Assembly (NCBI GenBank): GCA_049304095.1
Contig: JBAQNU010000029.1
Coordinates: forward strand, 98,222 to 162,221
Length of the DNA stretch: 64,000 nucleotides
Origin: Candidatus Moraniibacteriota bacterium
GTDB taxonomy: Bacteria; Patescibacteriota; Minisyncoccia; Moranbacterales; UBA2206
Direction: 5' to 3'
Shown: piece by piece, positions 33,406 to 38,087 of the stretch
How positions within the stretch are numbered: position 1 is the first letter of the stretch
Layout: the number at the start of each line of letters is the position of its first letter
Notes under the pieces: generated by a model
What the model saw: the letters and a program-made list of their open reading frames with translations, nothing else
Databases searched by the model: none
What the model was told of the DNA's origin: nothing
Program-made: the position numbers and the translations under genes

Positions 33406-33459
33406 GACTTTAGTTGGGATGAGAAAATGAATTGGCTTGTGGTATAATAAAAGCTCAAG

Positions 33460-33543
33460 GGGCGGATGGCGGAATTGGTATACGCGCAAGCTTGAGGTGC
33501 TTGTGGGAGCAATCCCTTGGAGGTTCGAGTCCTCTTTCGCCCA
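33460..33543 (+). tRNA. tRNA-Leu (GAG)
   Basis: GGGCGGATGGCGGAATTGGTATACGCGCAAGCTTGAGGTGCTTG... Confidence 0.8.
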
Positions 33544-33550
33544 CAATCCT

Positions 33551-33623
33551 GGATCCTTAGCTCAATGGCTAGAGCACCTCGTTTACACCGAGGGGGTTAT
33601 AGGTTCGAGTCCTATAGGGTCCA
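33551..33623 (+). tRNA. tRNA-Val (TAC)
   Basis: GGATCCTTAGCTCAATGGCTAGAGCACCTCGTTTACACCGAGG...GGTTCGAGTCC. Confidence 0.8.
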
Positions 33624-33627
33624 CAGA

Positions 33628-33950
33628 GCCGAGTTAGCTCAGTGGTAGAGCAGAGGACTGATTTTCGGTCCGCTCTGAAGTAATTCAGAGATGAGAATTG
33701 GATGAATTCGAGGAAGCCTAAAACTAATTTTATTAGAAATGGTAATCTCGAGCTAAGCTTCAAAGGGCGTAAGGTTTTGAAGAAAGTGTAGAGACTAGCA
33801 AGTGAGTCCCAACAATAATCTTGCATTAGCGTCCGATATCCTATTTTGCTAAGTAGCAAAAGGATAATGAAATAGTCCGATCCTTGGGGAAACTCAAGAA
33901 AAATGAGTAGGAAAATCCTTGTGTCCCCGGTTCAATCCCGGGACTCGGCA
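33628..33950 (+). tRNA. tRNA-Phe (GAA) interrupted by a ~251-nt intron between positions 33 and 34
   Basis: Exons GCCGAGTTAGCTCAGTGGTAGAGCAGAGGACT / GAAAATCCTTGTGTCCCCGGTTCAATCCCGGGACTCGGCA closely match a canonical bacterial tRNA-Phe. Confidence 0.7.
33660..33910 (+). other. putative group I self-splicing intron in the tRNA-Phe anticodon loop
   Basis: 5-prime exon ends in U paired with a G of the internal guide GGUCC (P1 GGACU/GGUCC). Intron ends in G. R-like AGAGACUAGC and S-like AAUAGUCCG elements. No ORF. Confidence 0.55.
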
Positions 33951-33954
33951 CGGA

Positions 33955-33982
33955 TTGCATAAAATTGAACCTGTGGTATAAT
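33955..33982 (+). promoter_or_regulatory. promoter TTGCAT-16-TGgTATAAT (extended -10)
   Basis: Read directly upstream of 34011. Confidence 0.45.
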
Positions 33983-34010
33983 TTATCTATTAGCCATAGG
34001 TTCAATTTTT

Positions 34011-34694
34011 ATGAGAAAAGATAAAGTCAAAGCGCTAGCGCTTAGAAAAAAAGGTTTTAGCTATAATGAAATTAGCAAAAAACTAGAAGTTCCTAAAAGC
34101 ACGCTAAGTTATTGGTTGGCAGATGTAGTAATTTCACAAAAAGCGAAAAACAGAATTGCAAGTAGGGTTTTTGCAGGAAGTGTGAAGGGGCTGATTGAGA
34201 GAAATAAAAATCAAACGGCACTAGCGAAAGAAAGAGCAAAAGCTATTCGAGAAATTGCAAAGAAAGAAGTTAGAAATTTAATGAAAAACAAATTATTTTT
34301 GGTGGGCATTTCCCTGTATTGGGCGGAGGGATATAAAAAGGGTGCTTATGGAAGTAAATGGAAAGCAGTGGATTTTGCCAATTCCGATCCTGAGTTAGTG
34401 AAAATAATGATGAATTTTTTCAGAAAAGTTTGCAGAGTAGAAAGTGAAAAGATAAAAGTTCAGCTAATTGCTCATAAAAATATTGATATGGACGAAGCGG
34501 TGAGCTATTGGTCTGGGCTTATGAAATTATCGAAAAGTCAGTTCATGAAAACAAGTTGTGCGGTGAGTAGCGCGAGCAAAGGCAAGAGAAACAAAAACAG
34601 TTTGACGCACGGAACAGTTCATATTAGGATAAATGATGTAAGGCTATTTTTTCGGATTATTGGCTGGATCGATGGATTGAAGTTGTATATATAG
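34011..34694 (+). CDS. HTH-containing protein with a single LAGLIDADG-like motif (LFLVGISLYWAEGY); candidate free-standing homing endonuclease
   Basis: N-terminal HTH (GFSYNEISKKLEVPKSTLSYWL). Motif resembles the LAGLIDADG core. Position next to the intron-containing tRNA. Confidence 0.35.
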   Translation: MRKDKVKALALRKKGFSYNEISKKLEVPKSTLSYWLADVVISQKAKNRIASRVFAGSVKGLIERNKNQTALAKERAKAIREIAKKEVRNLMKNKLFLVGISLYWAEGYKKGAYGSKWKAVDFANSDPELVKIMMNFFRKVCRVESEKIKVQLIAHKNIDMDEAVSYWSGLMKLSKSQFMKTSCAVSSASKGKRNKNSLTHGTVHIRINDVRLFFRIIGWIDGLKLYI

Positions 34695-34742: not shown

Positions 34743-34814
34743 GCGGGTATCGTATAGTGGCTAATATACGTCCTTGCCAAGGACGAGCGACGGGTTCGAT
34801 TCCCGTTACCCGCT
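34743..34814 (+). tRNA. tRNA-Gly (GCC), discriminator U
   Basis: GCGGGTATCGTATAGTGGCTAATATACGTCCTTGCCAAGGACG...GGTTCGATTCC. D-stem has a G10-U25 wobble. Confidence 0.7.
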
Positions 34815-34953
34815 CAAGATGGCAGAAGCGACTCTTTTTTGGGTCGTTTTTGCTTTAGATAAGTCAAAAGTATCCAGTTCGAGAAAAGTCGAGGACGGTC
34901 CTCGATTTTTTATACTGCTTTACGCTAGATTTATGCTATAATTGACCAAATAT

Positions 34954-35572: not shown

Positions 35573-37072
35573 ATGGCAAAAAATGTATTAAATTTAAATC
35601 AAAAAAGTGCAAAAAAATTCTTTCTTAGTCAAGAATGTTATTTGAACATCGAATTGCCGCCATATTTTAAGTTTGATGAGTTGCTTGCAGAAGTTGACAA
35701 CGAATCAAATTCGTTGATATTAAGCGAAAAAGATTTAAAGAAAGCGAAGAAAAATGAAACAATAAATCATATTTTATATGGCAACAAGGATGGTAAATAT
35801 GCTTGGAGAAAATATGAAATTATAAACCCACTGATGTATGTATCGCTGGTAAACGTTATTACAGAAAAGGATAATTGGGATTTTTTAAAAAATAGATTTA
35901 ATGAATTTCAAAAAGATAGCAATATAGAATGCGAAAGCATCCCAGTTTTAGCTGGCACTAAATCAAAACAAAGAGCATCTCAGATTTTACGCTGGGTCAA
36001 TAGAATTGAAAAAAGGTCACTTGCACTAGCGTTGGAATATAAGTATTTATATCAAACAGATATTTCTGATTGTTATGGTTCTATATATTCTCATTCATTG
36101 CCTTGGGCCATACATACCAAAGAAACATCGAAAAATAATAGGGGCTTCAATGGTTTGTTTGGAAATAAGATTGACCAGCACATACAAGCTATGTCTTATG
36201 GAGAAACAAATGGCATACCGCAAGGGAGCACTTTAATGGACTTTATAGCAGAAATTGTTCTTGGTTATGCGGATATGCAATTGTCAGATAAATTAAAAAA
36301 AGAATTAAGGGAAAAGAAGTTTCATATTTTGAGATATAGAGATGATTATAGAATTTTTGTAAACGATGTTGCTGACGGGGACATTATTTTAAAGTGCTTG
36401 AGTGAAGTTTTATTAAACTTAGGATTCAGATTGAATGCCAATAAAACATCCTTTAGTGATGATGTTATTGGCGGGTCAATAAAAAAAGATAAAATTGACG
36501 AATTACGAATAGAGGAAACACCGAAAAAGTTATCCAAAAAGGGACTACTTAGACAATTGCTTATAATTCAACAACTGGGTAAGCAATTTCCTAATTCTGG
36601 AACAGTAGTTAGGCGACTCTCTCACATTTTGGATAATGTTAAACCAAAGGATTTTTATTTGCAAGAGAAAATAATAGTAAGTGTGCTTGCTGATATAGCC
36701 TATAACAACCCAAACTCCTTTCCTCTTGTGGCTGGTTTAGTTTCAAGCTGTATCGCCAAGGTATCAAAAAAAGAGAAAGGGGAGCTGTTAATTTCAATAC
36801 AAAAAAAGGTTTGCTTGCTTCCAAATGCTGGCCTTTTGGAAATATGGACGCAAAGGATAGCTCTTGGAATAAAACTTAAATTGGAATTAAATGAAAAACT
36901 TTGTTGTTGTGTTTACGACTCAAATTTTAAGATATTCGAAACGAATTGGATAGAATATCCCAGAATTAAGGCTATTATAGACGACGGTTCTTATGTTGAT
37001 ATGGATAAAATAGAGAAACTTAAGCCGATAATAAGCAATAAAGAAGTCCAAATATTTACTTATGGCGGTTAA
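35573..37072 (+). CDS. reverse transcriptase, defence-associated/Abi-UG type (RT domain plus alpha-helical C-terminal extension)
   Basis: RT motif A DISDCYGSIY, motif B-prime GIPQGSTLMDFIAEIVL, motif C RYRDDYRIF and a downstream NANKTSF. No retron VTG. No DGR SQ motif. Confidence 0.75.
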   Translation: MAKNVLNLNQKSAKKFFLSQECYLNIELPPYFKFDELLAEVDNESNSLILSEKDLKKAKKNETINHILYGNKDGKYAWRKYEIINPLMYVSLVNVITEKDNWDFLKNRFNEFQKDSNIECESIPVLAGTKSKQRASQILRWVNRIEKRSLALALEYKYLYQTDISDCYGSIYSHSLPWAIHTKETSKNNRGFNGLFGNKIDQHIQAMSYGETNGIPQGSTLMDFIAEIVLGYADMQLSDKLKKELREKKFHILRYRDDYRIFVNDVADGDIILKCLSEVLLNLGFRLNANKTSFSDDVIGGSIKKDKIDELRIEETPKKLSKKGLLRQLLIIQQLGKQFPNSGTVVRRLSHILDNVKPKDFYLQEKIIVSVLADIAYNNPNSFPLVAGLVSSCIAKVSKKEKGELLISIQKKVCLLPNAGLLEIWTQRIALGIKLKLELNEKLCCCVYDSNFKIFETNWIEYPRIKAIIDDGSYVDMDKIEKLKPIISNKEVQIFTYGG

Positions 37073-37346: not shown

Positions 37347-38087
37347 ATGAATATGGCAATAAATTGTGGCTTTGAGGATAAGGGAGAAACAACCTGGTTT
37401 TTTCGACTAAGTCATAATGAGAAACGTGAATTATTTTTTTGGATACTGTGGGATAAAATAAAACCCTCTTATTTTTTTGATGGGCTAGATAATAGCGAGC
37501 AGGATATAAAAAATATCGATCATATCTCATTCCATAAGGACGGAACAATTCATATTCGATTTTATGATCAGTCGAGTAATGCTGAAAAGATTATTCATAC
37601 AAAACTCGTGAATACTATCCTAGGAATGGAACAAGATAAATATGGACCTCTTTTGACAATATCCATCTATGACTCAAATCTATTTAAAAAATTTATTGGA
37701 AAAGATAATCCAGTGGTTTTTAATAAATTTCAGCATACTCAATTGAAATGGGATATTGAGGGAATTGAAAAATTCAGCCTTGTGTTCTTTTTGGTTGGTG
37801 GACATATAAATCACAGATTGATGTTGGAGAAAAATTTCCCCGGTATGTTTAATATGGGTGCCTCCCCGTATTTAATGAACTTCTTTGGAGATGATAGCAA
37901 GCTTGAGATGGAAAATGGAGAAGTTAGAAAAGTTAATGATCTAGGGTTATTGGTGGCGTTTACAACAAAAACCATTCCGCGACCTCCCAAAGAAGCTATA
38001 ACCGGCACAAGGAAGTTTGATTGGATTGAAATTCCATTAGGCATAAATATAACTCCCTCTGATGAAAAAATAAGGAGAATGACTTAA
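37347..38087 (+). CDS. hypothetical protein, third gene of the AT-rich RT island
   Basis: ORF only. AT-rich. Confidence 0.4.
   Translation: MNMAINCGFEDKGETTWFFRLSHNEKRELFFWILWDKIKPSYFFDGLDNSEQDIKNIDHISFHKDGTIHIRFYDQSSNAEKIIHTKLVNTILGMEQDKYGPLLTISIYDSNLFKKFIGKDNPVVFNKFQHTQLKWDIEGIEKFSLVFFLVGGHINHRLMLEKNFPGMFNMGASPYLMNFFGDDSKLEMENGEVRKVNDLGLLVAFTTKTIPRPPKEAITGTRKFDWIEIPLGINITPSDEKIRRMT

Follow-up and report, generated by a model that had tools for sequence, protein, structure and literature searches.

A group I intron in the tRNA-Phe gene of a Moraniibacteriota bacterium and its helix–turn–helix protein neighbour

The DNA analysed here, a 64-kb stretch of contig JBAQNU010000029.1 (assembly GCA_049304095.1) of a Candidatus Moraniibacteriota bacterium that we call the window, contains a tRNA array in which the gene for tRNA-Phe(GAA) (window 33628–33950) is split after U33 by an insert of 251 nt (33660–33910). 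A promoter-like site (33419–33448) precedes the Leu-Val-Phe part of the array, and between tRNA-Phe and the next tRNA gene, tRNA-Gly(GCC), lies an open reading frame (ORF) for a protein of 227 amino acids, termed ORF227 below (table 1). When applied to the genomic sequence with its intron option (-i), ARAGORN reports the split gene as tRNA-Phe(gaa) i(34,251), the sole tRNA-Phe gene of the window, whereas without intron search it finds 12 tRNAs and misses this one. The exon letters flanking the 251 nt read GCCGAGTTAGCTCAGTGGTAGAGCAGAGGACT / intron / GAAAATCCTTGTGTCCCCGGTTCAATCCCGGGACTCGGCA; when joined in silico (33628–33659 plus 33911–33950, with the junction GGACU/GAAAAUCC), they give a 72-nt tRNA-Phe(GAA) that ARAGORN folds into a canonical cloverleaf. 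Relatives of this locus were also gathered via ribosomal protein L19, encoded upstream in the same array, which makes for a sample unbiased as to the intron. Among these, loci L252 and L253 carry the intron, L255 and L256 have, in the syntenic position, a tRNA-Phe gene without intron, and at L254 the contig breaks within the intron. The spliced tRNA of the window is identical to the syntenic tRNA-Phe of L256 at 70 of 72 positions, with no difference in the anticodon arm, and the insert is thus a clean indel relative to a working allele.

The insert has the sequence and folding features of a group I intron. It matches the Rfam family RF00028 (Intron_gpI) over the entire model (33650–33899, model positions 1–253 of 253) with 75.4 bits at a gathering score of 50 (E 2.4e-17), which is the sole group I match in the 64 kb, and ARAGORN -i found no further tRNA with an intron in the window. 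On the + strand, no ORF of 60 or more amino acids lies inside the insert. A structure comprising P1 to P10, assembled manually on the basis of the sequence and its Rfam alignment, consists of canonical pairs throughout (intron nucleotides 1–251 correspond to window 33660–33910). In P1, the exon sequence GGACU (33655–33659) pairs with G8GUCC12 of the intron, which places a U33·G8 wobble at the splice site, and in P10 the intron sequence A2UUUUC7 forms 6 bp with GAAAAU of the 3' exon (33911–33916). P1 and P10 thus share a single contiguous guide, AUUUUC-GGUCC, that is complementary to the ligated anticodon loop. The R-like element AGAGACUAGC and the S-like element AAUAGUCCG together form P7, whose G134–C218 pair we take to be the guanosine-binding pair by analogy with P7 of Tetrahymena. 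The GAAA tetraloop of P9 is a candidate partner of the receptor in P5, with which it may dock, and beyond P9 a tail of 12 nt leads to the final base, G251 (33910). The unconstrained minimum free energy (MFE) fold finds P2, P3, P4, P5/P5a, P8 and P9 independently (z −2.41).

These data bear out the core of the sequence-only reading that preceded this analysis. It had placed a group I intron without an internal ORF between positions 33 and 34 of a tRNA-Phe(GAA) with textbook exons, had described a 5' exon ending in U33, a guide GGUCC (intron nt 8–12) forming a P1 with a terminal U·G, R- and S-like elements and a last base G, and had named a covariance-model scan for the group I core and a fold of P1–P9 as checks. 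Both checks agree with it, as does the covariation in homologues described below.

Table 1. Features of the tRNA array around the split tRNA-Phe gene (window coordinates; nt, intron nucleotide numbering).
Feature	Position	Strand	Basis or remark
tRNA-Leu(GAG) and tRNA-Val(UAC), same array just 5' of tRNA-Phe	33460–33624	+	ARAGORN
tRNA-Phe 5' exon: acceptor 5' strand, D arm, anticodon stem 5' strand, C32, U33	33628–33659	+	ARAGORN; identical in relatives
Group I intron, 251 nt, ORF-less, last base 33910 = omega G	33660–33910	+	RF00028; covariation; MFE fold
Internal guide sequence AUUUUC-GGUCC	33661–33671	+	Sequence; covariation in 105 sequences
P2 hairpin CUCUGAA-GUAA-UUCAGAG, GNRA loop	33673–33690	+	7/7 pairs covary, 96.6% paired
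P3 5' strand, partner 33830–33837	33697–33704	+	Covariation; nt 38–45 with 171–178
P4-P5-P6 domain	33708–33787	+	Helices 93–99% paired, compensatory changes
P4	33708–33713/33746–33751	+	nt 49–54 with 87–92
P5, CC/GG in 11-nt-receptor-like CCUAAA..AAUGG, capped by P5a	33717–33742	+	Covariation
P6/P6a, GUAA loop	33752–33787	+	Covariation
P7 5' strand G132-A133(bulge)-GACUA138, partner U214AGUCC219 (33873–33878)	33791–33797	+	Invariant, 105/105
Extra P7.1-like hairpin between P7 and P3', stem GCAAG/CUUGC, conserved 17-nt loop UGAGUCCCAACAAUAAU	33798–33824	+	Stem covaries; nt 139–165
P8 hairpin	33838–33865	+	Covariation; MFE fold
P9 hairpin, GAAA tetraloop	33883–33898	+	93% paired, 6/6 pairs covary
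tRNA-Phe 3' exon, first bases anticodon G34 A35 A36	33911–33950	+	ARAGORN; syntenic tRNA-Phe of L256, without intron, is colinear
Inverted repeat AAATTGAACCTGTGG..(loop with TATAAT)..CCATAGGTTCAATTT, conserved, its end 2 nt short of the ORF227 start	33962–34008	+	Most ORF-bearing loci
ORF227, 227 amino acids: N-terminal helix–turn–helix (HTH), long helix, C-terminal LAGLIDADG-like domain (LFLVGISLYWAEGYK, E106 nearly invariant)	34011–34694	+	60 nt after tRNA-Phe
tRNA-Gly(GCC), next tRNA of array; directly after tRNA-Phe in relatives without the ORF	34743–34815	+	ARAGORN; relatives' arrays

The window intron is one of many. A pattern scan over one genome per species yielded at least seven further tRNA-Phe genes split at the same place, in Moranbacteria/Moraniibacteriota, Saccharibacteria, unclassified Patescibacteria and one metagenome-assembled genome (MAG) labelled Bdellovibrionales, and a tighter pattern applied to metagenome contigs added at least about 112 more 33/34 introns in tRNA-Phe. 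Together, the two scans gave at least about 119 loci with at least 109 unique introns, mostly of 205–304 nt. The genome pattern, GGTAGAGCANNNNNYTN{3,7}TTCGR, was too permissive, with mostly ordinary tRNAs of unrelated phyla and these seven Phe-intron loci among the 120 matches listed; three long 'introns' (L081, L099 and L111; 800–1356 nt) were discarded as exon-matching artefacts on loci outside the candidate phyla radiation. The contig labelled as uncultured Bdellovibrionales (L041, CAZSCV010000004.1) has, within a Phe-Met-Gly array, a tRNA-Phe intron typical of the Patescibacteria; either its binning or labelling went wrong, or the intron occurs here beyond the Patescibacteria.

When the hand-built structure was scored on an alignment of 105 of these introns, each with 12 nt and 10 nt of exon, 91.0% of cells were paired as compared with 76.1% in shuffled alignments, and changes on both sides occurred in 55 of 75 pairs. 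The covariation score was 0.414, in comparison to 0.157 after shuffling (0 of 500 shuffles reached it) and to 0.05–0.12 when partners were slid by one to three columns. Compensatory changes were seen in P2, P3, P4, P5, P6/P6a, the extra hairpin, P8 and P9, whereas the invariant P7 is backed by conservation rather than covariation. The U33·G pair at the splice site is present in all 105 sequences. P1 is paired to 90% and tracks the sequence of the anticodon stem, with A–U replaced by G–C or C–G where the exon has changed, and P10 (96% paired) tracks position 37, with UA becoming CG in the ten genes that have GAAGAG, i.e. G37. For the conserved loop of the P7.1-like hairpin, a mutual-information scan for a tertiary partner showed covariation of the stem only.

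The periphery of these introns is variable. In a minority (e.g. L082, L127, L130, L174, L192 and L194; alignment columns about 287–345), the conserved GUGAG..CAACAAUAAUC hairpin that follows P7 is exchanged for a different and longer element, UCCCGUAAGGGAGUACUC..., with a second hairpin, similar to published Asn introns of Paceibacteria; the family thus has two versions of the peripheral domain after P7. Several members do not have P9, and the intron of L125 has 451 nt owing to expanded P5 and P8 loops, with no ORF.

With standard group I chemistry assumed throughout, splicing would proceed as follows. Once the Leu-Val-Phe array is transcribed, the guide AUUUUC-GGUCC would pair with the 5' exon's end, GGACU, to form P1 with its U33·G8 wobble, and exogenous guanosine bound at the G–C pair of P7 would attack and cleave after U33. 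The same guide would keep GAAAAU of the 3' exon in place through P10, the terminal G (33910) would move into the guanosine site and ligation of the exons would restore the anticodon loop CUGAAAA. Where exactly the 5' cut falls is ambiguous by one base from the sequence alone, since the intron and the 3' exon both begin with G. We place it at 33/34 because a group I intron is cut at its 5' end behind a U that forms a U·G wobble, and U33·G8 is conserved in 105 of 105 sequences. Excision of a real intron one base downstream (34/35), with a 5' exon ending in G34, would produce the same mature tRNA from the shared first G, and this starting G is present in eight of eight examples found without requiring it; yet such a cut is very improbable, as the terminal P1 pair would become a Watson–Crick G–C, and ARAGORN, tFind and Nakagawa et al. 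(2026, mSystems; PMC13011429) all put the Phe intron at 33/34.

Taken together, sequence, structure, covariation and homology argue strongly that this Moraniibacteriota tRNA-Phe(GAA) gene harbours a functional, self-splicing and ORF-less group I intron at U33/G34. Two points weigh against this view. Our search patterns required part of the guide (TTCGG), which in part accounts for the conservation of P1 and P10, with the other helices being unselected; and the in vitro splicing assays of Nakagawa et al. (PMC13011429), which showed self-splicing for one Asn and one Asp intron, cover introns of these two tRNAs only. That the insert is instead a dead remnant, and tRNA-Phe an insertion-inactivated pseudogene in a cell using another copy, for which a view confined to 64 kb of the genome leaves room elsewhere, is very improbable: the catalytic core is intact, P7 is invariant in 105 homologues and all other helices show compensatory changes, a combination that requires selection on the RNA fold, the gene occupies the syntenic position of the relatives' intronless tRNA-Phe, and the per-genome tRNA counts that supplement Nakagawa et al. 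(PMC13011429) show one tRNA-Phe for each complete Patescibacteria genome displayed there.

How does this intron relate to those already known? The sequence-only reading had regarded both the tRNA-Phe host and the 33/34 site as unusual. The host is indeed uncommon, but Nakagawa et al. (2026, PMC13011429), who surveyed 95 complete Patescibacteria genomes, list Doudnabacteria GCA_016699995.1 with an intron at 33/34 of Phe(GAA) (Table 1/S3), and the site is the usual one of tRNA-fMet introns (ibid.), with fMet.2Ug being among the four classical classes in Williams (2020). A tRNA-Phe 33/34 group I intron is therefore already published in kind, and the window adds a Moraniibacteriota example. The Doudnabacteria intron agrees with the window intron in its core and guide logic (the complement of GAA(A/G), then G plus the complement of the end of the anticodon stem) and is likewise ORF-less, and no ORF beside it is reported; it differs in length (211 nt versus 251 nt), in having no P9 and in its exons (anticodon stem GACGC, G37), and it belongs to a different class of Patescibacteria. 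The 35/36 intron of tRNA-Asn(GUU) in GCA_016700035.1, which self-splices in vitro (PMC13011429), also resembles the window intron in its homologous core, in the P7.1-like hairpin with its loop motif, in having GUAA as L2 and in length (234 nt), but differs in host tRNA, site (after U35) and guide sequence. The hairpin loop GUGAG(Y)CCCAACAAUAAUC after P7 is common to all three introns. Some Asn introns hold internal HNH endonuclease genes, whereas the window intron has none.

With the classical IC3 introns of tRNA genes, i.e. those of cyanobacterial tRNA-Leu(UAA) (34/35), tRNA-fMet (33/34), Azoarcus tRNA-Ile and Agrobacterium tRNA-Arg, the window intron shares the location in the anticodon loop after a U, a small and ORF-less format and GNRA loops L2 and L9, and with fMet even the exact site. 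However, IC3 introns have no extra helices between P7 and P3', whereas the window intron has a covarying 27-nt hairpin there (33798–33824), which the Anabaena IC3 intron does not have in our alignment of these introns. The IC3 assignment originally suggested for the window intron is thus probably wrong. According to Nakagawa et al. (PMC13011429), nearly all tRNA introns of Patescibacteria are IA and none IC, with 25 of 28 introns at 35/36 being IA. Homology to their Phe and Asn introns, along with the extra hairpin, suggests that the window intron belongs to this lineage, which they class as IA, although it has one P7.1-like hairpin and not the two (P7.1/P7.2) of the IA insertion.

The second element of interest is ORF227, for whose family databases offer the labels 'hypothetical' or 'HTH domain-containing'. 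This family is large (2,882 clusters of 50% identity at E ≤ 1e-10) and some of its members in our protein library are tandem fusions of two or three copies with 420–580 amino acids (e.g. P0374, P0385 and P0404); the window contains no second copy. In the motif LYWAEG, E106 is conserved to at least 90% and G107 is invariant across the family, which corresponds to the LAGLIDADG arrangement of a helix with a catalytic acidic residue followed by glycine. A profile of the C-terminal domain gave I-DmoI as the sole near-significant match in the PDB (E about 0.02), with aLYwaEGtK..vsFtNsdp.li.lm.Fl aligned to the second, catalytic motif of I-DmoI, GLYVAEGDKT..RIWNKNKALLEIVSRWL, and LAGLIDADG_3 is the commonest weak Pfam match in the family (three of 37 members, best E 0.046). 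Several searches speak against this assignment: the window protein itself has no Pfam match, with no significant hit to LAGLIDADG_1/2/3 or to a family profile, Foldseek against PDB and BFVD found no match, and hhalign against an alignment of the I-CreI family gave a probability of 0.2–0.4%. For the C-terminal domain, protein searches of Pfam, NCBIfam, PHROGs and PADLOC returned nothing, nor did a PDB sequence search with a shallow profile. As judged from the motif and the profile match, ORF227 probably has a LAGLIDADG-type domain with the catalytic glutamate retained; that it is an active homing endonuclease targeting intronless tRNA-Phe is a much more tentative proposition.

ORF227 is preceded by an inverted repeat of the pattern AAATTGAACC(N)GTGG-loop with TATAAT-CCA(N)(N)GGTTCAATTT, followed by the ATG, and its symmetry is kept by compensatory changes in about 20 other loci. 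The repeat could serve as an operator for the HTH protein, form a hairpin that acts in translation or processing, or be akin to a terminator. In its 3' arm, the sequence GGTTCAA is similar to the T arm of a tRNA.

Among the matches listed, ORF227 homologues adjoin the intron-bearing tRNA-Phe on the same strand in 60 of 119 loci (e.g. L110, L082, L237 and L241). In the 66 listed loci whose two flanks each extend to 780 nt or more, the ORF lies 53–96 nt downstream in 31, abuts the tRNA upstream in four and is absent from 31, such that 35 of 66 show an endonuclease-like gene outside of, but tightly linked to, an ORF-less intron, with the polymorphism that collaborative homing entails. Otherwise identical arrays (Phe followed by Pro-UGG, by Gly-GCC or by Met) exist with and without the ORF, which is thus an insertion. 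When the search started from the ORF instead, five of five homologous proteins (57–71% identity) were encoded 55–62 nt after an intron-bearing tRNA-Phe. Phage records contained neither the intron nor ORF227.

This linkage suggests collaborative homing, i.e. an arrangement in which the Phe intron would travel in trans with a free-standing HTH-LAGLIDADG enzyme, itself part of a large family of selfish genes of tRNA arrays; ORF227 would then cut intronless tRNA-Phe alleles at the anticodon loop. Known cases of collaborative homing (PMC3984707) resemble the window locus in combining an ORF-less intron with a closely linked endonuclease-like gene outside of it and in their presence/absence polymorphism. 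They differ in that they concern protein-coding genes of phages and HNH or Endo VII-type enzymes, whereas the window locus has a tRNA gene of a cell as its host and an HTH plus LAGLIDADG-like protein as the putative enzyme. For the window, we regard this scenario as possible but doubtful. Two findings count against a strict tie to the intron: ORF227 paralogues with 30–34% identity occur in tRNA spacers next to intronless tRNAs, and loci with introns of 96–99% identity share only about 70% identity in the ORF. On balance we lean towards ORF227 not being an intron-tied endonuclease, but either an HTH DNA-binding protein (a WhiA-like regulator or domesticated LAGLIDADG protein) or an independent mobile gene with a preference for tRNA-array spacers, its link to the intron reflecting shared ancestry within one clade. 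This account, however, has to accommodate that all five ORF-first look-ups led to intron-bearing tRNA-Phe genes, that all four informative loci of the L19-based sample are without the ORF, including the two intronless ones, that the glutamate at the catalytic position is nearly invariant in the family, and that the ORF comes and goes in otherwise identical arrays.

These more distant paralogues of ORF227 (30–34% identity) lie in other tRNA-array spacers at L166, L151, L208, L193, L155 and L199 (after Met, before Gly, Ile-UAU, Ala-GGC, Val), often with their stop codon within 10 nt of the next tRNA. Furthermore, small ORFs with a GIY-YIG domain (87–104 amino acids) are present in the same tRNA arrays (L256, 3639–3905; L244/L245/L246, 1209–1523), one of them directly after an intronless tRNA-Phe. 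Endonuclease-like genes of several kinds seem to accumulate in the tRNA arrays of this group of bacteria.

The intron itself shows hints of mobility. Between the window and L003, L157, L237, L252, L253 and L254 it is 92–100% identical, whereas the flanking genes for pseudouridine synthase and L19 of these loci are only 66–85% identical at the nucleotide level. This conservation could stem in part from selection on the ribozyme; the peripheral helices, however, vary freely across the Phe-intron family (mean column identity 42%), and recent lateral spread or gene conversion of the intron is therefore plausible. In addition, contigs of two Moraniibacteriota MAGs, L121 (GCA_049295935.1) and L254 (GCA_049296135.1), end at the same intron base (corresponding to window position about 33754) after an identical stretch of 127 nt of tRNA and intron, with their L19 genes being only 76% identical. 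Such a common end suggests assembler behaviour at a repeat shared by two genomes of one sample, and thereby an intron that is shared nearly unchanged between co-occurring lineages and breaks their assemblies.

Just downstream of the tRNA array, a patch of low GC content (34–38 kb; GC 0.33–0.35 versus about 0.41) encodes a reverse transcriptase of 499 amino acids (35573–37072, + strand) with a full-length PADLOC match to AbiP2, a defence-associated reverse transcriptase (E 1.5e-177). The ORF of 246 amino acids beside it (37347–38087) has no family match. The reverse transcriptase gives this patch the look of a small defence island within a genome of the Patescibacteria.

A class of tRNA introns known from one published genome turns out to be common in environmental Patescibacteria (at least 110 loci), and because default tRNA finders miss the split gene, tRNA-Phe is scored as absent in estimates of genome completeness. 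In the current view, the tRNA introns of Patescibacteria are mostly without homing endonucleases and hence rarely move. An endonuclease-like gene beside the tRNA in half of the loci would change this view, and so would introns of 95–99% identity in genomes whose neighbouring genes share 66–85% identity. If collaborative homing does operate here, the 'endonuclease-less' tRNA introns of Patescibacteria would not be immobile, the tRNA-Phe locus would be the first case of such homing in a tRNA gene of a cell, and the 'hypothetical HTH proteins' of this large family would gain a function.
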